A stretch of 64,000 nucleotides of DNA from Nitrospinales bacterium (GTDB lineage Bacteria > Nitrospinota > Nitrospinia > Nitrospinales > VA-1): positions 1,696,001 to 1,760,000 of the forward strand of contig OZ253496.1 in the NCBI GenBank assembly GCA_965262115.1, in the 5' to 3' direction. This document shows, in pieces, positions 1,342 through 49,755 of the stretch. How positions within the stretch are numbered: the stretch's first letter is position 1; each line of letters opens with the position of its first letter. The position numbers and the translations under genes were made by a program. A model generated the notes under the pieces. That model was not told the DNA's origin and searched no databases. It was given only the letters and a program-made list of their open reading frames with translations.

Positions 1342-3621
1342 ATGTTGAAAAAAGCCCACATTTTTTTTGCGGCCCTGATTGGTTTTACTCTTCTTATCTC
1401 GGTCCCCTTTGTGTTTGCTCAAGAAGGTGAAAACATCCAGTCCGTGAAGGTGCAAGGGAACAAGAGGATTGACGAGTCAACGATCCTCTATTACATCAAA
1501 TCCAAGCCCGGCACCGTTTTCTCCAAAAAACAAATCCGTGAGGATATCGAGCAAATATACAGCCTGGGGCAATTCAAGGACATCCGTGTTGAAACGCGCG
1601 AGACCCTGAAGGGGCTGGAGGTTGAATTTTTTGTCGAAGAGATTCCTTCAATTGAGGATGTTGAAATCGTGGGGACTGACAGGGTTGACGCGAATGACAT
1701 CCGGGAAAAAATTAGGCTCAAGCGGGGAGCGACTTTTAGTGATCACCTGGTTCTGGAAAACAGTGAGGAAATCCTCAAGCTTTATCGTGAGAAAGGATAC
1801 TTTTTTGCCCAGGTAAATATCGATACCCAGTCCGGTCAGGAAAACATGGTTAACGTTACCATCAGGATCAAGGAAGGAGAAAAGGTAAAAATTGAAAAGA
1901 TCCGTTTTTCAGGAAACAGATCCTTTCCGGATAAAGAACTCCGTGAACAGATGGAAACTCAGGAAAGGACCTGGTATTCCTTTATAGATGATTCAGGAGT
2001 GTACCAAAAAGATATCTTGAAGCTGGATATGTTCCGGGTAGAAGGTTTTTACCACGATCACGGTTTTCTCAGGATCAAGGTATTGGAGCCTCGTATAGAG
2101 ATCAACAAAAAATCCAGGGAAGTTCATATTGCTATCCCGGTTGAGGAAGGTCCGCAGTTTCGCGTGAAGACTTTGGACTTGAGTGATGATGATGCGGTTT
2201 CTCCGGATGAAATTCAAAAAAGCATTCAGACGAAGGTTGGCGACATCTACAATGTGTCCCAGCTTCGTCAGGATATTTTAACGATCACTGATTTGTACTC
2301 CCAAAAAGGTTATGCCTATGCTGACGCGAACCCGATATCCAAGTTAAACGATGAAGATCGCACCGTTGATTTGTCCATTGAAGTCGATAAAGGCAAAAAG
2401 GTTTATGTTGGCAATATTGAAATTCTGGGAAATATTAAAACCCGGGACAATGTTATCCGCCGTGAATTCCGGCTGAAGGAAGGGGAGTTGTTTGACGGTT
2501 CCAAATTGAAGCGGAGTAAACAACGGGTCAACAACCTCAACTTTTTTGAAGATGTCAAGATTGATACCCATAGAGGCCAGGATCCTGACCTCATTGATAT
2601 CCTCACGACAGTGACAGAAAGGCCGACCGGGTCGTTTTCAGTAGGTGCTGGTTTTAGCTCGGTTGAGAATTTGATTTTTACTACCTCCATCACCCAGGAC
2701 AACCTGCTCGGAAATGGTCAGAGGCTGAGCTTGAATGCCCAGTTGTCCTCCATCCGTTCGGATTTTAATTTAAGCTTCACCGAGCCGCGTTTGTTTGATT
2801 CCGAAATACTATTTGGAGTCGATGCGTTTAATGAGGAGCAGGATTTTCTCAGCTTCGATTCCCAATCAATCGGAGGCGGTATTCGCCTGGGTAAAAATAT
2901 TTCTGAGTATGATTCAGTTAACCTCAGATACCGATTTGAGGATGTAGAGGTGACGGGGGTGGCCGCAGACGATGAAACGGAGTTTTTTAAGAATGAGACC
3001 CGCGTGACCAGCAGAATTGCTCCCACCTATGTTCATGATTCGCGGGATAATTTTTTAAATCCTTCCAGGGGATGGAGGCATGTGGTAGGATTTGAACTCG
3101 CCGGCCTGGGAGGCGCTAAATTCACCAAATCCTTTTATGAAGTGACGTACTACCACCCCCTGTGGGGGAAGCTTGTTGGTGCGGCGCACGCCCGGATTAA
3201 TTACGCGGCGGGGTATGGTGGAGAAAAGCTTCCAAGTTTTGAAAGGTACTTCATGGGAGGGCCGACTTCCCTCAGAGGCTTTACGATTGAAGATGTCGGG
3301 CCAAAAGATAGGGATGGCGATCCGGTAGGGGGTAACCAGGCACTTCTTTTGAATTTGGAATTACAGTACCCCTTTACCAAATCTTTTCGCGGGTTTGTGT
3401 TTTATGACCGTGGTAATGTTTATGGCAGTCGTCCTGACACTGGTACTGCATCTACTACATCCGATAATTTTGACTTGGGAAAAATGCGCAGCAGCGTAGG
3501 CGCGGGTATTCGTTTTATCAGTCCTTTTGGCCCACTGGGTTTTGCCTATGGCATCAAGCTGGACAAGGAAACTGGCGAAGAGGCGGCAGAATTTCATTTC
3601 TCGGCAGGAAGCGCATTTTAA
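1342..3621 (+). CDS. bamA: Outer membrane protein assembly factor BamA
   Basis: Signal peptide after ATG 1342, POTRA repeats, LRGF motif, SPFGPL, C-terminal Phe; upstream of skp-fabZ-lpxA. Confidence 0.95.
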   Translation: MLKKAHIFFAALIGFTLLISVPFVFAQEGENIQSVKVQGNKRIDESTILYYIKSKPGTVFSKKQIREDIEQIYSLGQFKDIRVETRETLKGLEVEFFVEEIPSIEDVEIVGTDRVDANDIREKIRLKRGATFSDHLVLENSEEILKLYREKGYFFAQVNIDTQSGQENMVNVTIRIKEGEKVKIEKIRFSGNRSFPDKELREQMETQERTWYSFIDDSGVYQKDILKLDMFRVEGFYHDHGFLRIKVLEPRIEINKKSREVHIAIPVEEGPQFRVKTLDLSDDDAVSPDEIQKSIQTKVGDIYNVSQLRQDILTITDLYSQKGYAYADANPISKLNDEDRTVDLSIEVDKGKKVYVGNIEILGNIKTRDNVIRREFRLKEGELFDGSKLKRSKQRVNNLNFFEDVKIDTHRGQDPDLIDILTTVTERPTGSFSVGAGFSSVENLIFTTSITQDNLLGNGQRLSLNAQLSSIRSDFNLSFTEPRLFDSEILFGVDAFNEEQDFLSFDSQSIGGGIRLGKNISEYDSVNLRYRFEDVEVTGVAADDETEFFKNETRVTSRIAPTYVHDSRDNFLNPSRGWRHVVGFELAGLGGAKFTKSFYEVTYYHPLWGKLVGAAHARINYAAGYGGEKLPSFERYFMGGPTSLRGFTIEDVGPKDRDGDPVGGNQALLLNLELQYPFTKSFRGFVFYDRGNVYGSRPDTGTASTTSDNFDLGKMRSSVGAGIRFISPFGPLGFAYGIKLDKETGEEAAEFHFSAGSAF

Positions 3622-3642
3622 ATTTTAAAAAGGATCAGATTT

Positions 3643-4185
3643 ATGCGATTGACAATTTTTCGGAAGTTCAGAATCATCTGCCCACTACTCATTTTGGGTT
3701 TTTTAGTTTGCGGACCTTTTGCAGTTTCGTCTTTTGCCGCAGATAGCCGGATAGGGTTTCTGAATATTCAAAAAGCGGTTTCCAGTACCAAGGAGTGGAA
3801 AACCAGGTTTAAAAAATTTAAAACGGATTTCACCAAAGAGAAGAAAAGAATCAAGGTTAAGGAACGGAAGATCAAAAAAATGTTGGAGGATTTGAATAAA
3901 CAAAGCTTTGTTCTGGATCCGAAGCTGAAAAAGAAAAAAGAAGACACATTTAGAAAAGAAAAAGTTGCTTTTGAAAGATATGTCCAGGACCAGAACGCGG
4001 AGTTCGGTAAAAAAGAAAAAGAAATGGCCCAAAAAATCCTGCTTAAAATGATGGGGATCATAAAAAAAATCGGCAAAGAAAAGAAATATACAATGATCCT
4101 GGAGCAGAAGTCGGTTCTATATCACGATAAAGGAAACGATTTGACGGGCATTGCGACCCGGGCCTATAACAGGGCTAATAAATAG
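3643..4185 (+). CDS. skp: Periplasmic chaperone Skp/OmpH, copy 1
   Basis: Signal peptide, IGFLNIQKAV start, Lys-rich coiled coil, DLT near C-terminus; synteny with bamA. Confidence 0.88.
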   Translation: MRLTIFRKFRIICPLLILGFLVCGPFAVSSFAADSRIGFLNIQKAVSSTKEWKTRFKKFKTDFTKEKKRIKVKERKIKKMLEDLNKQSFVLDPKLKKKKEDTFRKEKVAFERYVQDQNAEFGKKEKEMAQKILLKMMGIIKKIGKEKKYTMILEQKSVLYHDKGNDLTGIATRAYNRANK

Positions 4186-4275
4186 TTTCTGGTTATGCTC
4201 CAGCTAAAATAACCTGCTCGACTCCCGCGCTTGAACTCGCTGAAATTTCCAGAAAAGTCATAGGCATTCAACAGT

Positions 4276-4343
4276 GAGACCTTTGCATAACCTCGAAGGG
4301 GTAATCTCGCTTTTCTGTTTTTTTCGACTTATGCAAAGCTCTC
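4276..4343. mobile_element. 68-bp internally deleted MITE (GAGA[C/G]CTTTGCATAA TIR family)
   Basis: TIRs GAGACCTTTGCATAA / TTATGCAAAGCTCTC; flanks TTCAACAGT / TTTAACAGT (8/9 TSD). Confidence 0.85.
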
Positions 4344-4462
4344 TTTAACAGTAAGAATGGACTCCTGATATGATGGATATTAATGAAATCAAGAAAATCA
4401 TACCCCATAGATATCCTTTCTCGGCAGGAAGCGCATTTTAAATTTTAAAAAGGATCAGATTT

Positions 4463-5005
4463 ATGCGATTGACAATTTTTCGGAAGTTCAGAATCATCTG
4501 CCCACTACTCATTTTGGGTTTTTTAGTTTGCGGACCTTTTGCAGTTTCGTCTTTTGCCGCAGATAGCCGGATAGGGTTTCTGAATATTCAAAAAGCGGTT
4601 TCCAGTACCAAGGAGTGGAAAACCAGGTTTAAAAAATTTAAAACGGATTTCACCAAAGAGAAGAAAAGAATCAAGGTTAAGGAACGGAAGATCAAAAAAA
4701 TGTTGGAGGATTTGAATAAACAAAGCTTTGTTCTGGATCCGAAGCTGAAAAAGAAAAAAGAAGACACATTTAGAAAAGAAAAAGTTGCTTTTGAAAGATA
4801 TGTCCAGGACCAGAACGCGGAGTTCGGTAAAAAAGAAAAAGAAATGGCCCAAAAAATCCTGCTTAAAATGATGGGGATCATAAAAAAAATCGGCAAAGAA
4901 AAGAAATATACAATGATCCTGGAGCAGAAGTCGGTTCTATATCACGATAAAGGAAACGATTTGACGGGCATTGCGACCCGGGCCTATAACAGGGCTAATA
5001 AATAG
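4463..5005 (+). CDS. skp: Periplasmic chaperone Skp/OmpH, copy 2 (identical)
   Basis: Identical to 3643-4185. Confidence 0.85.
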   Translation: MRLTIFRKFRIICPLLILGFLVCGPFAVSSFAADSRIGFLNIQKAVSSTKEWKTRFKKFKTDFTKEKKRIKVKERKIKKMLEDLNKQSFVLDPKLKKKKEDTFRKEKVAFERYVQDQNAEFGKKEKEMAQKILLKMMGIIKKIGKEKKYTMILEQKSVLYHDKGNDLTGIATRAYNRANK

Positions 5006-5095
5006 TTTCTGGTTATGCTCCAGCTAAAATAACCTGCTCGACTCCCGCGCTTGAACTCGCTGAAATTTCCAGAAAAGTCATAGGCATTCAACAGT

Positions 5096-5163
5096 GAGAC
5101 CTTTGCATAACCTCGAAGGGGTAATCTCGCTTTTCTGTTTTTTTCGACTTATGCAAAGCTCTC
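5096..5163. mobile_element. 68-bp MITE, second copy created by the tandem duplication
   Basis: Identical to 4276-4343 with the same flanks. Confidence 0.85.
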
Positions 5164-5189
5164 TTTAACAGTAAGAATGGACTCCTGAT

Positions 5190-5621
5190 ATGATGGATAT
5201 TAATGAAATCAAGAAAATCATACCCCATAGATATCCTTTTCTGCTGGTTGATAAGATTATCGAATGTGATACGGACTCCCGAATTGTCGGCATCAAAAAT
5301 GTGACGATCAATGAACCTTTTTTTCAGGGTCATTTCCCGGAGTTCCCTGTCATGCCCGGTGTGCTGATTATCGAGGCTCTTGCGCAGGTCGCCTGCATCT
5401 TGGGAATTAAAATTATGAACAAGGAGGGTCAGGCTTCTGTGTTCTTCACTGGTATTGATAAGGCCAAATTCAGGAAGCCTGTGGTCCCGGGAGATCAATT
5501 GCGGCTGGAGTTGACTAAAATCAAGCAAAGGGGAACGCTTTTCCGGTTTGAAGGCAAAGCGTATGTAGGCGATGCTTTGGCTACTGAATGTACTATTCAG
5601 GCAATGCTCGGTAAAGACTGA
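5190..5621 (+). CDS. fabZ: 3-hydroxyacyl-ACP dehydratase FabZ
   Basis: PHRYPFLLVD, FFQGHFP, MPGVLIIEALAQ motifs. Confidence 0.97.
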   Translation: MMDINEIKKIIPHRYPFLLVDKIIECDTDSRIVGIKNVTINEPFFQGHFPEFPVMPGVLIIEALAQVACILGIKIMNKEGQASVFFTGIDKAKFRKPVVPGDQLRLELTKIKQRGTLFRFEGKAYVGDALATECTIQAMLGKD

Positions 5622-8346: not shown

Positions 8347-8417
8347 GTCTGGCGAGCCGCCGGTGGCTGTGATACTCCCAACATTAGCTTCATGCCCCGA
8401 AGCAACTGTGTTAAATG

Positions 8418-9368
8418 TCAAGTGCTGGCAATGAGATTTTCATTCCAGAGTGTTTTTGTTTTGATCATGGTATTGATGATCGTTAATAACTTTCTCATGC
8501 ATGCGGTAATGGCAACTTTAAAGGGTTTGCCCTTTTCGATGAGGCGTGTGTAAAAGGTACGAATCACGGGATTATGCTGCATGGCAGTGACGGCGGCCAT
8601 GTATAAAGCGGCACGCACATTGGCGCGACCGCCCCAGATACACCGGCGGCCCCGGAACTTTCCGCTGTCCCGATTGAGGGGAGCGAGACCGATGAGGGCG
8701 GCGATTTGCTTCTGATTAAGAACTCCAAGTTCCGGAACCCCGGCCAAGAGGTTGACAGCCAGAACGGGACCGGCACCGGGAACACTTTGTATGATCTGGT
8801 CGTGCTCACGCCAGGCAGAACTGTTTTTGATGGTTCTGGAAAGGTCGCCATCGATTTTTCGCAAGCGTTTTTTAAGAGATTCGATATGCTCCTTAATGTC
8901 TTTACATATCCATTTTGGAGCTTGTTTTAGACGGGTTTTTTCTTTGGTCAGCATCTCGATCAACTGGCGACGGCGTGTCACTAGAGCTGAGAGTTCAAGA
9001 GATTCTTCGTCTTTGATTTTCCTGACCTCAGGACGTATGGCCTTGGCAAAATGGGCCAGCACAAGAGAATCAATGACATCGGTTTTTGCCAGTTTCCCGG
9101 TGGCTTTGGCAAAATCACGAACTTGCCGTGGGTTGACCACGGCTACTGGCAGTCGACCCGCAACCAGGGCCGAAGCCAACGGGATCTCTAAGCCGCCTGT
9201 GGCTTCCAAAACGATCAATGGAGGATTTAAGGCGGATAAACTCTCGACCAAACCAGCAATCCCTTCTTCATTGTTAGCGGTTTGCCAGGTTTCTTGAGTC
9301 ATGCTGTCAGCAACATCCAGATGGAGTTTAGAAATATCGATGCCAATAAAATGGGGTTTCTGATTCAT
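8418..9368 (-). CDS. IS110-family DEDD recombinase/transposase
   Basis: IGIDISK, LEATG, KTDVID (RuvC-like DEDD), SVPGAG, GLAP...DSGK (Tnp-domain Ser). Confidence 0.96.
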   Translation of the reverse strand: MNQKPHFIGIDISKLHLDVADSMTQETWQTANNEEGIAGLVESLSALNPPLIVLEATGGLEIPLASALVAGRLPVAVVNPRQVRDFAKATGKLAKTDVIDSLVLAHFAKAIRPEVRKIKDEESLELSALVTRRRQLIEMLTKEKTRLKQAPKWICKDIKEHIESLKKRLRKIDGDLSRTIKNSSAWREHDQIIQSVPGAGPVLAVNLLAGVPELGVLNQKQIAALIGLAPLNRDSGKFRGRRCIWGGRANVRAALYMAAVTAMQHNPVIRTFYTRLIEKGKPFKVAITACMRKLLTIINTMIKTKTLWNENLIAST

Positions 9369-9375
9369 AATTTGG

Positions 9376-9585
9376 TCTCCCAGCCTTGCCGATGCGGGCT
9401 CAGTGGCCCAGGCAACTGTTCGGGTTAATCAAAATAGGACACAACGATCTGCGCTTCGGGACGGGCTTAAAAGCCCAAGGGGTAAACGATCTATTGTGCC
9501 CTGAATCAAATCCTGGGAGCTTGTGGAAAACACAAAACCGGCTTCCCACAGGGCTCACAGGTACAACTACTACAAATTCCCCTTA
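9376..9585 (-). ncRNA. Predicted IS110 bridge RNA, copy 1 (ends approximate)
   Basis: Guides on minus strand: LTG 9478-9486, RTG 9454-9460, LDG 9412-9419, RDG 9385-9388, each pair flanking an internal hairpin. Confidence 0.8.
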
Positions 9586-9874
9586 TGAACAACATACAAG
9601 GGGTAAACTGGCAATATCTTTAACTTCTGGGCAAAAAGTTATCTCGGCTTGAGAAACTCCACTGGAACGTCATCGCGAGCTGCGGCGCGGCGATCCAGTT
9701 TTGTTTGCATCATGCCCAGAAGGGGTAAAATAAAGGCATTGTAATCTGCCACCGGCGGCTCGCCGGTTAACCCGAGATGCTGATCGAGAACAAAATGAAG
9801 ATAATGGAAATTACCAGCGGAGGTTCTCCGCCCACTAGCTGTGGAGGCAGGAGCAATGCCCATGGAGCGAGAGC

Positions 9875-11080
9875 ATGATTGATAGCAGTAACAAGACATT
9901 GCATCCTGAGTCCAGCGTCACGCTGGATTTTTTAATTATTGCTGGCGAGGCCTCCGGAGACTTGCATGGCTCGAATCTGGTATCGGCTTTAAAGGCTCTT
10001 TTGCCTCAGGTCCGTTTCAGCGGAATGGGTGGGTCGAGAATGCGGCAGGCTGGGGTGGAAACACTCTTTGGCATTGAGCGTATGGGCGCGGTCGGGGTGG
10101 TTGAGGTGCTGGGAGAATTTGGTCATTATTACAAGGTCTATCGGACATTGATGAAGGAAATCGCCTCGCGCCGTTATGATGCGGTGATTCTCATCGACTA
10201 TCCCACACTAAATCTTAGATTGGCAAAACAGGCACGACGTTTTGCTTGCCCGGTATTATTTTTCATCAGCCCGCAGATTTGGGCCTGGAGGAAGGGAAGA
10301 ATCCGGAATATCCGGGCGTCTGTGAGCAAGATGTTTGTCATTCTCCCGTTTGAAGAAAAACTGTATCTCGATGCCGGGGTAGACGCGGAATTTCTGGGGC
10401 ATCCGTTTGTGGACATGGTCCATCCCAGCCGGACTCGTGAAGAGAGCCGGGTAAAATATTCCTTAAATCCAGAGATCAGGACCATCGGGCTTTTGCCCGG
10501 AAGCAGGATGAATGAGGTAAACTCCCTTTTAGATGTGATGGTTCAGGCGGGAGAAAAAATTCGCGATGAACTGGGTTCCTGCCAGTTTCTTCTTCCCGTT
10601 GCCGACTCTATCGATCCCGATCTGATCCGCCAGCGTCTGGGTACCAACCCGCTGGGTATCCAATTGGTTGAGGGAGAACCCTATGATGTGATGAATAGTT
10701 GTGACATGTTGATCATTGCATCCGGTTCTGCCACGCTGGAAGCGGGAATTCTTGGATGCCCCATGGTCATCATCTACAAGTTGAATCCCTTGACCTACTT
10801 GCTGGCACAGTTGTTAGTTGATGCTCCATTGGTAGGTCTGGTGAATATTGTGGCGGAGGAAGAGGTGGTGCCCGAATTAATACAGGATAAAGTGACAGCA
10901 GAAAATATCTCTACCGAGGTGCTTGCAGTTTTGCGGGTTTCTGGAAAGGAACAGGCTGTTCGCGAGCGTCTTCTTGAAATCAGAAAAACTCTGGGAGAAC
11001 CCGGGGTCATGAAGGTTGTCGCGAAACGCATTGCCGATTTTATGGATAAATTGAGCGCCAATGAAAAAACTCCTGTTTAA
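9875..11080 (+). CDS. lpxB: Lipid-A-disaccharide synthase LpxB
   Basis: AGEASGDLHG, IDYP, SPQIWAWR, LLPGSR, ASGSATLE. Confidence 0.96.
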   Translation: MIDSSNKTLHPESSVTLDFLIIAGEASGDLHGSNLVSALKALLPQVRFSGMGGSRMRQAGVETLFGIERMGAVGVVEVLGEFGHYYKVYRTLMKEIASRRYDAVILIDYPTLNLRLAKQARRFACPVLFFISPQIWAWRKGRIRNIRASVSKMFVILPFEEKLYLDAGVDAEFLGHPFVDMVHPSRTREESRVKYSLNPEIRTIGLLPGSRMNEVNSLLDVMVQAGEKIRDELGSCQFLLPVADSIDPDLIRQRLGTNPLGIQLVEGEPYDVMNSCDMLIIASGSATLEAGILGCPMVIIYKLNPLTYLLAQLLVDAPLVGLVNIVAEEEVVPELIQDKVTAENISTEVLAVLRVSGKEQAVRERLLEIRKTLGEPGVMKVVAKRIADFMDKLSANEKTPV

Positions 11081-21541: not shown

Positions 21542-21644
21542 TTCTTTAGGGATAAAAGGATTGAGACGTCAAACATAATCAGGAAGTTATGATTATAACT
21601 TAATTTTTGCCATTTCCCCAACTTATTGAGAAACAAAGGGTCGA

Positions 21645-21757
21645 CGGTGTAGCCACCGCTGGCAAATTGCAATGTCTTTAACTTGCCCTCAATCGGCTAC
21701 TCGGCCCAACGAGTTATTGCTATCTGCATCCACGGCTAGTGGGCGCTGGCTACACCG
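21645..21757. repeat. REPIN-like dispersed element (type copy): TAGC-loop hairpins flanking a ~52-bp GCAAT...ATTGC core
   Basis: CGGTGTAGCCA ... TGGCTACACCG inverted ends; core similar to 8 or more other intergenic copies. Confidence 0.7.
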
Positions 21758-21880
21758 CGACCGGATAGAGTTTATACAATCGTGACTTTGATGGCGGTTG
21801 CCTTGATGTAACCTGTTCGTGTCTGACCATGGTTGCAAAAACCCATGGTTGGAAATAGTGCGAGACTTGGCCTTAAGAAC

Positions 21881-22048
21881 GAGACCTTTGCATAACCCAA
21901 GATTCTTCGTTGCAATAGCTCCTCAGAATGACAAAATAGCCTTTTATTGTCATGCTGAGCTAGTGATATTTGACCTTTGAATTCTTGCCCCGTAGGGGTA
22001 TCTCGAAGCATCTCGCTTTTCTGCTTTATAGACTTACGCAAAGGTCTC
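21881..22048. mobile_element. 168-bp MITE carrying an inserted ~39-nt mini-element
   Basis: TIR GAGACCTTTGCATAA / TTACGCAAAGGTCTC; perfect 9-bp TSD CTTAAGAAC. Confidence 0.92.
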
Positions 22049-22173
22049 CTTAAGAACCCGGCAAGGGGCGAGTTTAATTTAAAAATCAGACTGTTATGGA
22101 CGTAAAAAGGCTTTTATGGTAGCGTTTTACGGACAAAAGCTGAGCGACCTATAAAATAAGATGAGTCTCTTTC

Positions 22174-31466: not shown

Positions 31467-31719
31467 CCCACTCGGCGTGGCCAGCGTGACGCTGGACCCA
31501 ATGAGCAAGAAGTGATCTTGATTTTTTCTGGCTCCGCGCCGAGCGGTCAGCGACCGAGGGCAGATAGTAAGAGCGTATAAGGCCGAGACATCTCTTTTTT
31601 TGCCAGCAGAGTCATGCTCATTGTACCCCTCCTACCCCTTTGGGGCATGAGACAAGTGAAGAAATATCACAGGCTCATGAAAACTAATGAGGGGGTATCA
31701 CAGCCCCACGCCGAGTGGG
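31467..31719. repeat. Composite repeat block bounded by 14-bp inverted repeats, containing a REPIN-like core and two nested mini-elements
   Basis: CCCACTCGGCGTGG ... CCACGCCGAGTGGG; core 31567-31617; mini-elements 31624-31701 and 31633-31670. Confidence 0.7.
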
Positions 31720-32934: not shown

Positions 32935-33078
32935 GATTTGTGAGGGCCTTTATTTATTCGGTAATTTTCTCTGTGGCAACTCGCAGGCCCTTATTTCATA
33001 AGGTCTGCTCGTGGCTGTTATATTCTTCATCAGCTTTCATGCCCCATAGGGGTACAAAAACAACTTTTAGAGGTACTC

Positions 33079-34789: not shown

Positions 34790-34971
34790 AATCGTGTCTG
34801 CTCTCTTTTTTAAATTTTGCTTAATTGATTATTTTGTTATACCGGCGTTATCACCGGCGGCCGTGATATTCTTCCTAAATCTTCGTGCCCCGGAGGGGTA
34901 AAATTGCAATGTCTTTATTATGCGGACAAATGTTCTCTCGGCTTATAAGCTATTGCCCATTGCTTCTCTCG

Positions 34972-37555: not shown

Positions 37556-37789
37556 TTTCTTTACCCCCTACGGGGCACGAAAACTGAGGAAGAATATCAC
37601 GTGCTCACTGGCCTCACGCCCGGTGGCCCCTGCAAAGGTCTCTTCCGCAAGGGGGCCAGGGGGATTTGACGGGCCGTATGTAATTTGCCAGTGGTGGCTA
37701 CACCGCCTTAATTCACTGCAAGCAAAGGCGATTTAGTGTATAAATGTAACTTCATTTAAAACTCCATAAAATTCGAGGTGCAGGAAGGC

Positions 37790-39167: not shown

Positions 39168-41942
39168 ATGCTTCAAAGCTTTTGTCTCAAAAAAAAGAGT
39201 AGCGGGTCCCTGATTATCGGGATGGTCGTTTTTTTTAGTCTGATGATCGCAGCCGGTTTTGTGGATGAGGCGGTTGCGGAATCGAATGACAATCCCGATG
39301 AGAATATTGTTGGTGTAAATGGCAGCAGTCCCGTGCGTAGTGTCCTTGACCTGCTGACTCCTATCCACAGTGTCAGTGCCGAAGAGGTACACGATAATAG
39401 CCAGATTGAGGAAGGCCGCGTTTCGCAACTCTTGTTGCCTGCCTTTAATTTTTCCAGTTCCAGCACTAGTGTCAACGCTGAAGCAGAAATCTCGCGTCCT
39501 ATCGAGTTAGAAAGTATTTATGTCGTAGGCAGCCGCGCCCCTGAGCGCAGTGTTCTTGACCTGCCGGTTCCTGTTGACATCGTTACTGCCGAAGATATGC
39601 GTGACACGGGTCAGACCGAAGTGGGCCGGATGTTACAACGCCTGATACCCTCCTTTAATTTTTCCAGTTCCAGTATAAGTGACGGGACCGATGCCCTGCG
39701 CCCTGCAACGTTGCGTGGCTTGAGCCCCGATCAGGTATTGGTCCTTATCAACGGTAAACGCCGTCACAACAGTGCCTTGATACACGTCAATACATCGGTC
39801 GGGCGTGGTACGGCGGGGGTGGACATGAACGCCATTCCTGCGTCCGCCATTAAGCGTATCGAGATTTTGCGCGATGGCGCCGCCGCCCAGTATGGATCGG
39901 ACGCTATAGCCGGCGTGATCAACATCGTGCTGAAGGACGGCGTGCAAGAAGGTTTTGCCAGCGGTTCCTACGGTCAATATTTGGAAGGTGATGGTGAAAA
40001 TATCTTGTTCAATGCAGGCCAGGGGTTCCGGCTCAATGGTGGGAAGGGTTTTATCCACGCCAGCTTGGAATACCGTAACCGGAAAAGCACTAATCGCGCT
40101 GGTTTGACCGGCGAATGCCAGTACACTTGCACGCCTGCGGGTACTAACTCAAATGGAGCAATCCAGCAGACCACAGATCAGCGGGAAATCAATTTTAATC
40201 GGAAGAACTTCCGCATCGGCGATGCGGAGTCTGAGCAGTTTTCCGGCGTGTTGAATGCTGAGCTTGAGCTAGGCGGCGGGGAGCTTTATGGTTTTTTAAC
40301 CCGGTCGGGCCGTGAAAATACGTCCGCCGGGTTCTTTCGCAGAGCCAATCAGACAGAGAGCAATCCGGTCCTTGGTGATGGAGAAGCATTCTTCCCCAAC
40401 GGTTTTTTGCCCTTGATCAACACGGATGTCGAAGATTTTTCCATCAACGCGGGGTTCCGCCGTAAGCTTGACTGGGGGATTGATGCCGATTTTTCTATCA
40501 CCCACGGTCTCAATGATTTTGCCTTTAATATAAGTAACTCCGTAAATGCCTCGCAGGCGCGGAAAGCGGTAACTGACAGCATCCTCACTTCGGACGAGAT
40601 ACGCGCCAGCCTGCCAACCTCTGCCGATGCCGGTGAACTGGGCATTGGGCTGACCACCGCCAACATCGACTTGGTCAAACGCCTTGGCGACCTTACGCTC
40701 ACCGGCGGTGCCGAATACCGGCACGATACTTATACCATAAAAGCTGGAGATGAGGTCTCCTTCGCCGACTTCGATATCAATGACAATACCGCTGTTGCTG
40801 GCATCCAGGTATTTCCTGGATTTCAACCCAGTAACGAAGTGGATGAATCACGCAATATCGCCTCTCTTTACGCCGATGTCGGATATGACGTTAACTCCGA
40901 CTGGCAGGTAAACAGCGCGTTGCGTTTCGATCACTACAGCGATTTTGGCGGTACCCTTAATTTTAAACTGGCCACCCGCTACGCGTTCACCGACTGGCTG
41001 ATACTTCGAGCTTCTGGCGGCAGCGGGTTTCGCGCCCCTTCCATGCAACAACAGTTCTTTAATAATGTCAGCACCCAGTTCAACGATATCAATGGGGTCG
41101 TAACGGCCGAGCAGGTCGGAACCTTCCGCAACGACTCGGCCTTGGCCAGGGCCATCGGGATTCCCGAACTGAAGGAAGAAACATCCTATAATCTTGGGGT
41201 TGGCGTGGTTTTTCAGCCCTTTAAAAACTTCACCCTGACGGCTGACTATTACCGCATCACTATCGATGACCGTATCGTCCTCAGCGGACGCCTTGAGAGC
41301 GGCGCGAACGCGGCATTGGATGCCGCGCTTACGGCCAATGGCGTTCAGAGCGCACAGTTTTTCCTTAATGCCGTTGATACGGAAACCAACGGGATTGATA
41401 TTGTCGCAACATGGAAGATACGCCCCCCGAAGGGGCAGCTTGAACTTTCACTGGGTGCCAGTTATACAGATACCGAAATCACCGGGATATTTTCTCCTGA
41501 TAGTCTCCAAGGCGTTGCGCTTGACACGGTGTTCAGTGCCCAGGACAGCTCTATTATTGAGTCATGGCAACCCAAATCCCGTCTCAATCTATCGGCGGAT
41601 TATGCCTTGGGCGATTTCAGCATGACTCTGGCGCTCAATCGTTTTGGTGAATACACGGTGCTTGACGGTGATAAAAGCCAGACCTATGGCGCGAAAGTGC
41701 TGACCGATCTGTTGTTGCGGTACAACTTTCCTCGTAATATCACCCTCAGTCTGGGCGCAAACAACCTGTTTGACGTTGTTCCGGAGAAAAACCGAATCGG
41801 ACAATCCAGGAATGGCACCATCATCGATGGGGACGGCAACACGATTGTCAGTTCCAGCGGGGTATTCGAATTTTCCCGGCGTTCCGCCCCCTTCGGATTC
41901 AATGGTGGCTACTATTTTGCCAGATTGACGCACCGCTTCTAA
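39168..41942 (+). CDS. TonB-dependent outer membrane receptor
   Basis: TonB-box-like IYVVGSR, plug motifs LRGL/LINGKRRH/IEILRDGAAAQYGSDAIAGVINI, FRAPS, NLFD, C-terminal Phe. Confidence 0.94.
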   Translation: MLQSFCLKKKSSGSLIIGMVVFFSLMIAAGFVDEAVAESNDNPDENIVGVNGSSPVRSVLDLLTPIHSVSAEEVHDNSQIEEGRVSQLLLPAFNFSSSSTSVNAEAEISRPIELESIYVVGSRAPERSVLDLPVPVDIVTAEDMRDTGQTEVGRMLQRLIPSFNFSSSSISDGTDALRPATLRGLSPDQVLVLINGKRRHNSALIHVNTSVGRGTAGVDMNAIPASAIKRIEILRDGAAAQYGSDAIAGVINIVLKDGVQEGFASGSYGQYLEGDGENILFNAGQGFRLNGGKGFIHASLEYRNRKSTNRAGLTGECQYTCTPAGTNSNGAIQQTTDQREINFNRKNFRIGDAESEQFSGVLNAELELGGGELYGFLTRSGRENTSAGFFRRANQTESNPVLGDGEAFFPNGFLPLINTDVEDFSINAGFRRKLDWGIDADFSITHGLNDFAFNISNSVNASQARKAVTDSILTSDEIRASLPTSADAGELGIGLTTANIDLVKRLGDLTLTGGAEYRHDTYTIKAGDEVSFADFDINDNTAVAGIQVFPGFQPSNEVDESRNIASLYADVGYDVNSDWQVNSALRFDHYSDFGGTLNFKLATRYAFTDWLILRASGGSGFRAPSMQQQFFNNVSTQFNDINGVVTAEQVGTFRNDSALARAIGIPELKEETSYNLGVGVVFQPFKNFTLTADYYRITIDDRIVLSGRLESGANAALDAALTANGVQSAQFFLNAVDTETNGIDIVATWKIRPPKGQLELSLGASYTDTEITGIFSPDSLQGVALDTVFSAQDSSIIESWQPKSRLNLSADYALGDFSMTLALNRFGEYTVLDGDKSQTYGAKVLTDLLLRYNFPRNITLSLGANNLFDVVPEKNRIGQSRNGTIIDGDGNTIVSSSGVFEFSRRSAPFGFNGGYYFARLTHRF

Positions 41943-41945
41943 CAG

Positions 41946-42406
41946 GAGAGCTTTGCATAATCTGGGATTACCCCTTCTACCCGTTCCGGGCATGAAAGCT
42001 TGGGTGAAATATCCTCAACATTAGTCTTCATGCCCGGAACGGGTAGAAGGGGTAATCCCAGATTATGCAAAGCGAGATTCTTCGTCACCTTGTTCCTCAG
42101 AATGACAAAAGTACTTCTTCTTGTCATTCTGAACGCAGTGAAGCAATCCAGGGTTTGATTTAGTAATACTTCCTCTCCCTTCATAGGGAGAGGATTGAGG
42201 TGAGGGTTTGATTTCCGCCTACAGCCTTCTCCAGAGCTTTTCCTCAAACCAGAACCTGGATCGCCACGCTCATTTTAGTTGCTCGCGATGACGGGAGCGG
42301 GTAATTGTCATTCTGAACGAAGTGAATACGTGATGTTTCACCCAAGCTTTCATGCCCCGAAGGGGTAATCTCGCTTTTCAGGTTTTTCGACTTATGCAAA
42401 GGTCTC
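41946..42406. mobile_element. Composite MITE with nested repeats, including a perfect 47-bp inverted repeat
   Basis: Same TIRs as the other MITEs at both ends, no TSD visible; arms 41950-41996 / 42027-42073; mini-element 42330-42367. Confidence 0.8.
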
Positions 42407-42504
42407 ATGAAGGGAGGGAATCAAATAGTAAAACCTATCTCAAGCCGAGCTAAGCTGTTGTTAGCCTATGAATGCTATTGCAGTCGGCTGTCGGGCCGTC
42501 CCGA

Positions 42505-48329: not shown

Positions 48330-48415
48330 AACTTTCCAAATATTTAAAGATTAGCGCGGAGTACCTCCGCAGGTAATTTGCAATATCTTTATCTTACCCC
48401 TTGTATGTTGTTCAT

Positions 48416-48625
48416 AAGGGGAATTTGTAGTAGTTGTACCTGTGAGCCCTGTGGGAAGCCGGTTTTGTGTTTTCCACAAGGCTCACAGGGTTTGATTCAG
48501 GGCACAATAGATCGTTTACCCCTTGGGCTTTTAAGCCCGTCCCGAAGCGCAGATCGTTGTGTCCTATTTTGATTAACCCGAACAGTTGCCTGGGCCACTG
48601 AGCCCGCATCGGCAAGGCTGGGAGA
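48416..48625 (+). ncRNA. Predicted IS110 bridge RNA, copy 2 (ends approximate)
   Basis: 5' stem-loop; LTG TTTACCCCT 48515-48523; RTG CCCGAAG 48541-48547; LDG ACAGTTGC 48582-48589; RDG CAAG 48613-48616. Confidence 0.82.
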
Positions 48626-48632
48626 CCAAATT

Positions 48633-49583
48633 ATGAATCAGAAACCCCATTTTATTGGCATCGATATTTCTAAACTCCATCTGGATGTTGCTGACAGCAT
48701 GACTCAAGAAACCTGGCAAACCGCTAACAATGAAGAAGGGATTGCTGGTTTGGTCGAGAGTTTATCCGCCTTAAATCCTCCATTGATCGTTTTGGAAGCC
48801 ACAGGCGGCTTAGAGATCCCGTTGGCTTCGGCCCTGGTTGCGGGTCGACTGCCAGTAGCCGTGGTCAACCCACGGCAAGTTCGTGATTTTGCCAAAGCCA
48901 CCGGGAAACTGGCAAAAACCGATGTCATTGATTCTCTTGTGCTGGCCCATTTTGCCAGGGCCGTACGTCCTGAGGTCAGGAAAATCAAAGACGAAGAATC
49001 TCTTGAACTCTCAGCTCTAGTGACACGCCGTCGCCAGTTGATCGAGATGCTGACCAAAGAAAAAACCCGTCTAAAACAAGCTCCAAAATGGATATGTAAA
49101 GACATTAAGGAGCATATCGAATCTCTTAAAAAACGCTTGCGAAAAATCGATGGCGACCTTTCCAGAACCATCAAAAACAGTTCTGCCTGGCGTGAGCACG
49201 ACCAGATTATACAAAGTGTTCCCGGTGCCGGTCCCGTTCTGGCTGTCAACCTCTTGGCCGGGGTTCCGGAACTTGGAGTTCTTAATCAGAAGCAAATCGC
49301 CGCCCTCATCGGTCTCGCTCCCCTCAATCGGGACAGCGGAAAGTTCCGGGGCCGCCGGTGTATCTGGGGCGGCCGCGCCAATGTGCGTGCCGCTTTATAC
49401 ATGGCCGCCGTCACTGCCATGCAGCATAATCCCGTGATTCGTACCTTTTACACACGCCTCATCGAAAAGGGCAAACCCTTTAAAGTTGCCATTACCGCAT
49501 GCATGAGAAAGTTATTAACGATCATCAATACCATGATCAAAACAAAAACACTCTGGAATGAAAATCTCATTGCCAGCACTTGA
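48633..49583 (+). CDS. IS110-family DEDD recombinase/transposase
   Basis: 316 aa; differs from copy 1 at AHFARAV versus AHFAKAI; DEDD and DSG motifs intact. Confidence 0.96.
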   Translation: MNQKPHFIGIDISKLHLDVADSMTQETWQTANNEEGIAGLVESLSALNPPLIVLEATGGLEIPLASALVAGRLPVAVVNPRQVRDFAKATGKLAKTDVIDSLVLAHFARAVRPEVRKIKDEESLELSALVTRRRQLIEMLTKEKTRLKQAPKWICKDIKEHIESLKKRLRKIDGDLSRTIKNSSAWREHDQIIQSVPGAGPVLAVNLLAGVPELGVLNQKQIAALIGLAPLNRDSGKFRGRRCIWGGRANVRAALYMAAVTAMQHNPVIRTFYTRLIEKGKPFKVAITACMRKLLTIINTMIKTKTLWNENLIAST

Positions 49584-49755
49584 CATTTAACACAGTTGCT
49601 TCGGGGCATGAAGTACCCGTGCCGGGCATAAAGATTAATGAAGAGGCCATCACAACCGATGAGGGGTCATAACATGCTGCCAATGTGCTTTTGGTGAGCC
49701 GAGAGTATCGTTGCTAGCGGTAAAAAGCTATTGCCCACTGCCTGCCCCTGCCAAG

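Follow-up and report, generated by a model that had tools for sequence, protein, structure and literature searches.

An IS110 element with a predicted IS621-type bridge RNA occupies the hairpin of a mobile 40-nt repeat in a Nitrospinales genome

The two IS110 copies in the 64,000-nt window analysed here (positions 1,696,001 to 1,760,000 of contig OZ253496.1, Nitrospinales bacterium) are best explained as a bridge-RNA-guided, IS621-type element that inserts in the 12-base hairpin TACCC-CT-TCGGG of a mobile repeat, a reading to which we give a probability of about 0.85. Because the predicted guides spell this hairpin and 22 of the 23 full-length copies in the host genome (G000, a single 2.68-Mb contig) sit in it, the spread of the repeat likely supplies the IS with intergenic landing sites. 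The window carries bamA-skp-fabZ-lpxA-lpxI-lpxB, lon, clp and tig, some of these names being given by gene order. One IS copy lies between lpxI and lpxB and the other 65 nt upstream of tig (about 70 bp in the original prediction). As had been proposed, both interrupt a GAA-loop hairpin, the CT core corresponding to the last loop base and the first 3'-arm base of CTTCATGCCCC-GAA-GGGGTA. The predicted repeat length of ~38-40 nt agrees with the 40 nt obtained by rejoining the flanks, but the first base of the repeat is 8368, not 8369 as given earlier. The features are collected in Table 1.

Table 1. Coordinates of the IS110 copies, their predicted RNA and guide segments, and the 40-nt repeat (mini-element) in the window.
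Feature	Position	Strand	Remarks
IS110 copy 1	8401..9600	-	1200 nt including both CT cores
DEDD/Tnp20 recombinase, 316 aa	8418..9368	-	
Left non-coding end, predicted bridge RNA	9369..9560	-	5' stem-loop, target-binding loop, donor-binding loop
Left target guide TTTACCCCT	9478..9486	-	First two bases independent of the target
Right target guide CCCGAAG	9454..9460	-	Complement of CTTCGGG; fifth base pairs with the variable loop base of the repeat
Left donor guide ACAGTTGCC	9411..9419	-	8/9 match to IS right end ACAGTTGCT
Core-proximal right donor guide CAAG	9385..9388	-	Complement of IS left end CTTG
TTGACA near IS right end	8416..8421	-	Sequence
Mini-element 5' part	8368..8400	+	GNA-hairpin strand TGTGAT...TTCATGCCCCGA, up to the IS core
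Mini-element 3' end GGGTA	9601..9605	+	Beyond the IS core
Mini-element start TACCC, upstream of tig	48395..48399	+	
IS110 copy 2	48400..49600	+	Recombinase 48633-49583; flanks from two different original sites
Remaining mini-element with nested second 41-nt copy (49614-49654)	49601..49674	+	
Vacant full mini-element	42329..42367	-	Perfect 12-mer target, T loop base
Vacant 39-nt mini-element	34862..34900	-	C loop base; absent at the orthologous site of G019
Mini-element head	9710..9727	-	Right-target mismatch, tail missing
11-nt hairpin relic in MITE	4293..4303	-	Second at 5113-5123 via 820-bp duplication
Further nested mini-element	31633..31671	+	
Other mini-element	begins at 22000	-	
Other mini-element	begins at 33054	-	
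Other mini-element	begins at 37563	+	
Other mini-element	begins at 41978	+	
Other mini-element	begins at 42045	-	

Comparison of the 23 full-length copies set the ends of the IS, together with an orthologous pad that is vacant in the 95%-identical relative G013 (site 2114483); there the vacant target has one core restored, and the IS junctions show no duplication longer than the core. The CT cores fall at 8401-8402 and 9599-9600 in copy 1 and at 48400-48401 and 49599-49600 in copy 2. The recombinase matches the Pfam domains DEDD_Tnp_IS110 (PF01548, E 1.6e-24) and Transposase_20 (PF02371, E 1.9e-20), and its residues D11, E55, D97, D100 and S235 line up with the IS621-type catalytic positions. 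Its sole PDB matches are the ISCro4 and IS621 recombinases, and its closest named transposase homologues are Nitrospinaceae records, which points to a Nitrospina-type host.

The predicted bridge RNA has a fold with a z score of -2.5 that was equalled by 2 of 200 shuffles, and its scaffold is retained in homologues though the guides differ. The placement of the guides in its loops is the layout of IS621, as the available text of PMC11208160 describes it. The target-loop guides TTTACCCCT and CCCGAAG predict the target TTTACCC-CT-TCGGG, and the donor-loop guides ACAGTTGCC and CAAG match the joined IS ends ACAGTTG-CT-TG. Closure of a circle would put TTGACA 17 nt before TATGTT (9591-9596), making a predicted circle-junction promoter by analogy with the role such a pair is said to have in IS621. 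Taken together, domains, RNA layout, guides and cores place the element, on sequence grounds, in the IS110 group with an IS621-type bridge recombinase. A single Rfam match was obtained: a sub-threshold one to the Xanthomonas sRNA sX15 at window 9359-9515 (+), antisense to the bridge RNA (36 bits against a cut-off of 55, E 7e-4). It is possible that sX15 derives from an IS110 end.

We mapped the element across the host genome, where 26 left and 26 right ends gave 24 pairs; one of these (2519438) was dropped as two unrelated fragments joined, leaving the 23 full-length copies. Twenty passed a strict repeat-head test, and two more (2013360, with one extra C, and 2144617/2144780, with a duplicated left end) were assigned to the repeat by their G013 orthologs. 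The remaining copy, at 1212812, lies outside the repeat at a site with four left-side mismatches. The pattern that would have spoken against the original prediction, copies at sites unrelated to the repeat, thus did not appear. Likewise, 18 of the 19 right IS junctions of the relative G015, whose guide sequence is unassembled, are in the repeat. The repeat is nevertheless not strictly required, given the copy at 1212812 and the off-repeat location of three of the five right junctions in another relative, G016. At 2144617-2144780, the 163-nt duplication of the IS left end includes a second target-binding loop and on its inner side joins at a CT within the RNA gene.

Not all of these copies are independent, as a 1290-nt IS3-family element forms the common left flank of nine full IS110 copies and one fragment. 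With the IS3-borne left junctions counted once, the main guide is found in the repeat in 12 independent left contexts. All 17 copies of the IS3-family element carry the 41-nt repeat, ten with IS110, four vacant and three with a changed target. Within the IS3 element (L201, genome 695240-696530 and 16 more), the repeat lies just behind the orfA/orfB slippery site and closes the -1 frame. A 10-bp frameshifting deletion is common to six IS110 copies (1418001, 1463653, 1635422, 1896475, 1935080, 2013360), and since all six touch the IS3 element, this suggests passive spread or conversion.

The target is shorter than the 14 bases that were initially assumed. Positions 1-2 lie outside the repeat and are free to vary among occupied sites and among homologues alike; we therefore take the 12-mer TACCC-CT-TCGGG as the working target and reject one of 14 bases, only 12 of which matter. 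All 28 vacant perfect 12-mers (TACCCCTTCGGG) in the host genome are repeat heads, as are 145 of 151 in the 72% of the G013 genome covered by our comparison. Searches with the 14-mer and an intact core returned 5, 37 and 100 sites at 0, 1 and 2 mismatches, the last class including guide copies inside the IS, against 0, 0-2 and 9-20 in five shuffles. The five unoccupied near-targets listed in the original prediction exist with the mismatch counts it gave, but only 42356-42369, mismatched at position 1 alone, is a perfect vacancy. Most of the listed sites have mismatches at positions never seen occupied. The mismatches are at position 12 for 9716-9729, position 10 for 34889-34902, and positions 1 and 13 for 4292-4305 and 5112-5125, the last two being a single 820-bp duplication that holds just an 11-nt relic.

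The duplication concerns skp, which it repeats in tandem (window 3591-5230), and a MITE has inserted behind it; in five relatives skp is single and the MITE is lacking. The intergenic regions 9606-9930, 21640-22060 and 41940-42500 of the window are mosaics of several other short hairpin modules, and such mosaics differ almost completely between genomes that are 95% identical in their genes. Elsewhere in the genome, at about 3,000-39,000, near the contig start, there are long simple-sequence repeats of a kind unusual in it, possibly assembly junk.

Of special interest is the agreement between guide and loop base. The 21 full-length copies with the right guide CCCGAAG all sit on a T after the core, whereas the vacant heads of the host genome that are perfect except for the loop base carry A (42), C (30), G (37) or T (28); this preference is strong (Fisher p 3.5e-8, 12 independent left contexts). 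The other two copies, diverged to 88% identity, have the guide CCCGCAG and both occupy G-loops, as this guide predicts. These two have 227 nt of right flank in common and may represent one event, so the covariation rests on few events. No occupied copy of the C-loop class exists in the host genome. A third allele, with G at the loop-reading position, is found in G016, G019 and G013; junctions of the G016 guide CCCGGAG show T, T, C, T and G, a loose fit. Guide and loop base thus covary, the guide reading the freely varying loop base of the hairpin, and a one-base guide change matches a one-base change of the landing pad. With a recombinase of 316 aa and a target of 12 bases, the element lends itself to tests of specificity.

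The repeat itself is present in the host genome as 127 simple copies of 39-43 nt, and hairpin heads at no more than two mismatches number 328 against 1-4 in three shuffles. On one strand its consensus is YGTGAT...TTCRTGCCCS-GNA-SGGGTA. The closing stem pair covaries (C-G in 174 and G-C in 82 of 273 heads) and the loop base is free; G-C variants lose the CT core and are never occupied. GNA loops are stable in DNA, and a free middle base is expected of them. In addition, the first base of the repeat covaries with the R that precedes the stem (81 of 93 distinct matches in the host genome, 21 of 21 in loci of relatives), a pairing that is possible only when both ends of the repeat are brought together. 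Joined tail and head fold at -6.9 kcal/mol, compared with -3.1 for the monomer. The G-T pair and the GNA loop suggest a single-stranded intermediate of the repeat.

As a class, the repeat is REP-like in that it is a short, multicopy and mostly extragenic imperfect palindrome; ORFs of at least 150 aa cover 76% of the genome but are overlapped by only 39 of 273 heads. No GTAG or CGTC tag was found at the foot of the hairpin, which reads TTCR on the GNA strand, and the moving unit is not an inverted doublet, single modules of 39-41 nt being precisely present or absent. We rejected a MITE, as the ends YGTGAT and GGGTA are not inverted repeats and there is no duplication; direct repeats of at least 3 nt flank the repeat in 1 of 152 contexts. 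Self-nesting and tandem arrays were observed, and the repeat shows the traits of SDR elements, namely precise insertion without duplication, self-nesting and a narrow taxonomic range. An exact head occurs in 20 of 22 other genomes of the genus (0-354 copies; 354 in G013, 85 in G007, 74 in G022, 43 in G004 and 4 in G016) and in none of 18 genomes outside it.

The mobility of the repeat, claimed in the original prediction, is borne out by orthologous sites of close relatives that have no repeat, several of them precisely and with no duplication. At lpxI-lpxB in G013 the whole 40 nt and the IS are missing without duplication, the rpsI-rplM copy is missing in the same manner from G019, and conversely the pgm site has the repeat in G019 and none in the host genome, again without duplication. 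The more distant G006, G015 and G016 have no repeat at the sites viewed. Among 177 host copies compared with G013, 116 have no assignable ortholog, 18 are shared, seven are precisely absent, and 36 are absent or otherwise changed; for 244 G013 copies in the converse comparison these figures are 112, 26, 3 and 103.

The proposal that this spread seeds sites for the IS was also upheld. When 17 IS copies were compared with G013, the orthologous flanks lay side by side for six; the 2013360 site brings the number of assessable pads to seven. In G013, six of the seven are missing (four precisely, two with a changed surrounding repeat cluster) and one is present and vacant. The six pads, which the IS occupies in the host genome, arose after its divergence from G013, and new repeat copies therefore do become IS sites.

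A change from GG to CT, two bases into the flank beyond the ...ACA end of the repeat, often accompanies insertion (for example at window 31672-31678 and 49675-49681). When the host is the repeat's own loop, CT was found in none of the unfilled sites of the host genome, and the filled ones had CT in 16 cases and were unchanged in seven. For a second, unrelated host, CT was present in one unfilled site and lacking in 163, against 15 and 10 of the filled ones. G013 follows the same trend and three orthologous pairs show the change, which is possibly a mechanistic signature.

What moves the 40-nt repeat is the weightier question. No Y1 transposase (PF01797) was found in the host genome or G013; seven of 23 genus genomes are positive, including the repeat-free G009, and none of eight Y1 loci contains a repeat head. 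For reverse transcriptase there are broken pieces only in the host genome, one match in G013, and none in G019, G007 or G009, and the tyrosine recombinases (2-4 per genome) are not in excess in repeat-rich genomes. Small GIY-YIG genes and DUF559 genes were rejected as candidates, since mainly other repeats flank them, and G007 and G004, with 85 and 43 heads, gave no DUF559 match. The search covered these five enzyme types. The small GIY-YIG genes are flanked by CGTC-type repeats, and DUF559 nuclease genes with inverted CCCTCCC...GGGAGGG hairpin flanks occur at 377367, 660912, 735408, 1582279, 1589960 and 2140497.

We propose that a bridge RNA, transcribed from the circle-junction promoter as expected from IS621, likely guides recombination of the excised IS circle into the hairpin at the CT core, with a chemistry that would also be that of IS621. 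The repeat would spread on its own through intergenic DNA, and our best guess, held at somewhat less than even odds, is that it moves through a single-stranded hairpin intermediate. Each new T-loop copy would serve as a new landing pad, so the IS would spare genes while pads are abundant; each insertion splits the hairpin and probably ends the mobility of that copy.

Whether such pads are safe sites, as originally suggested, can be judged from G016, a 90-contig draft in which repeats may be undercounted, with four exact heads and no exact T-loop head. Besides the right junctions mentioned above, all three of its left junctions are off-repeat. One insertion splits a conserved gene that is orthologous to that of a 522-aa membrane protein, with a left and a right junction at residues 103 and 105; the part of this gene scanned gave no Pfam match. 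This sequence comparison agrees with the idea that abundant pads steer the IS away from genes, and the contrast between an intergenic IS where the repeat is abundant and an IS in a gene where it is scarce provides comparative evidence for the long-assumed idea of a safe landing pad. Genes are thus comparatively spared, but the pads are not inert, as the IS next to tig marks a rearrangement. After tig, G006 and G016 have a tRNA gene and DNA that in the host genome is located at 1,812,600, beyond a further IS copy. The block that begins at window 49,900 lies next to the left flank of copy 2013360 in all five relatives (0.1-2.1 kb apart). Either a ~66-kb block was translocated between directly oriented IS110 copies, with the tig copy as a junction, or three repeats were misassembled (window 48400-49600, genome 1811279 and 2013360). 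With IS copies marking a ~66-kb rearrangement, "safe" holds for gene integrity only. Other IS110 copies too have unmatched flanks. Because several copies share right flanks, we considered that IS and repeat move together as one unit; this was rejected, as mosaic IS haplotypes and synteny point to recombination between IS copies or misassembly. A promoter scan of lpxI-lpxB gave three sites against 1.5 in shuffles, an uninformative difference.

Several other readings of the same data deserve consideration. We think it rather unlikely that a folded hairpin is needed besides the guide match, as in ISPpu10, for which the available text of 10.64898/2026.03.19.712850 names a target stem-loop as second determinant. 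The compensatory stem pair shows that the stem is kept, yet the guide-paired bases are the stem itself, making any guide match palindromic, and genomics cannot separate the two. The off-repeat sites of G016 have weak 4-bp stems only, and the ISPpu10 stem, according to the same text, lies 5' of the core and not around it. Two further possibilities concern the nature of the repeat. It is very improbable that the repeat is a by-product of IS110 (a footprint or a mini-element moved by the recombinase), the match reflecting common origin: IS and repeat are both abundant in the host genome, and neither duplicates more of its target than the core when it moves, but the repeat is also abundant where the IS is absent or broken (G013, G007 and G022), its ends are unlike the donor guides, there is no duplicated CT core, and sister IS elements target unrelated repeats. 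We give even less credence to a static, host-maintained regulatory hairpin whose differences among genomes are deletions; the mostly intergenic location agrees with it, whereas the precise presence and absence in both directions, the nesting, the arrays, the copy in every IS3 element and a range from 0 to 354 copies within one genus with none outside do not.

An arms race, with the repeat evading the IS through diversification of its loop base and stem pair and the guide alleles (A, C, G) in pursuit, is doubtful. Among vacant exact C-stem heads the T-loop share is low in the IS-abundant host genome (28/93) and G015 (4/20) and high in G013 (216/307) and G007 (77/82). Three guide alleles exist, a right-target change affects three of seven vacant IS3-borne pads, and the G-C stem variants destroy the core. 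However, when occupied copies are added back the T-loop share becomes 38-42% in the host genome and 49% in G015, within the 38-61% of eight genomes without an IS match; the deficit thus vanishes, and plain consumption explains it. Furthermore, the share is low in G019 (30/109) with just one IS remnant, the genomes are few and related, and GNA loops leave the middle base free anyway. Escape by evolution of the loop base is thus unsupported. The same low degree of belief applies to a fuller guide-versus-target chase, taken as a whole: an enzyme-orphan 40-nt single-stranded DNA element, its hairpin completed only when the two ends meet, would be killed copy by copy by IS110 and escape through loop base and stem pair, and the IS would follow by single-base guide changes and later hop repeat families by rewriting its guides.

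Returning to bridge-RNA-guided insertion in the repeat hairpin, homologues give a view of its history. In a tree of 25 rows chosen from the available loci, eight transposases from this order form one clade (100/99). Guides of G040 and L037 match an AATCCCCCT-ACCCCC repeat, of which G040 has six vacant near-copies, and those of four copies from another family match GTCATCCTGAGC-type repeats. As read from these sequences, the IS lineage changes repeats by changing guides. It was likely reprogrammed onto the present repeat from other small palindromic repeats, the targets of its closest relatives. One IS110 clade with one scaffold and guides for three repeat families is a natural series of bridge-RNA reprogramming.

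A very small, lineage-restricted element with precise insertion and nesting in its own copies and in other repeats is reportedly also found in Nostoc, as the SDR elements of Elhai and colleagues (2008). The repeat described here resembles these in such traits; it is longer, at 40 nt against 21-27 nt, and belongs to a different phylum.

Insertion of IS110-family elements into REPs is known from the accessible text of several reports (PMC1525189, PMC12288879, PMC11208160, 10.64898/2026.03.19.712850), and REPs and REPINs have been described as mobile DNA (Bertels and Rainey, 2011, PMC3116915, as far as its available text goes). The notion of a parasite on a mobile mini-element therefore applies here but does not define a new kind, REPs being both mobile (PMC3116915) and IS110 targets (PMC1525189). 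Since IS110 elements are already known from mobile REPs and from portions of other mobile elements, the surprise is moderate. In the accessible portions of other sources, Tn21 inverted repeats and attC are targeted by IS4321/IS5075 and IS1111-attC (PMC11187229), CGTC repeats without a transposase are known (PMC3733652), and SDR5 of the SDR elements is mentioned (PMC4390886). Our literature search, which reached few subscription papers, found no report on a Nitrospina IS110 in repeats; guide tables in supplements may hold the element.

Compared with these systems, as their available texts present them, there is a close likeness to IS621 (Durrant et al., 2024, PMC11208160) and ISCro4, which also have a DEDD/Tnp20 recombinase, a left-end RNA with target- and donor-binding loops, a CT core at both junctions and insertion in a small intergenic palindromic repeat. 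The differences are that the target here, in place of a GTAG REP, is a 40-nt element restricted to one genus and ending flush with its GNA hairpin on one side, that the core is positioned at the loop of the hairpin, and that two guide alleles in one genome divide the repeat by loop base. ISPpu9, ISPpu10 and ISPa11 of Pseudomonas REPs are likewise IS110/IS1111 elements, REP-confined, intergenic and involved in large IS-cargo-IS rearrangements (PMC1525189, PMC12288879, 10.64898/2026.03.19.712850, in the parts accessible), whereas here no RAYT was found with the repeat and the stem-loop is the guide-paired sequence itself. REPs and REPINs with RAYT share the nature of a miniature, non-autonomous, extragenic mobile hairpin DNA (PMC3116915, available text), and differ from the single 39-41-nt module without GTAG tag or, in the host genome and G013, Y1 transposase. 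Finally, IS4321/IS5075 and IS1111-attC also target part of another mobile element from within the IS110 superfamily, but by the accessible text of PMC11187229 they belong to the IS1111 group, having subterminal inverted repeats and their RNA downstream, whereas the element described here has its RNA upstream.
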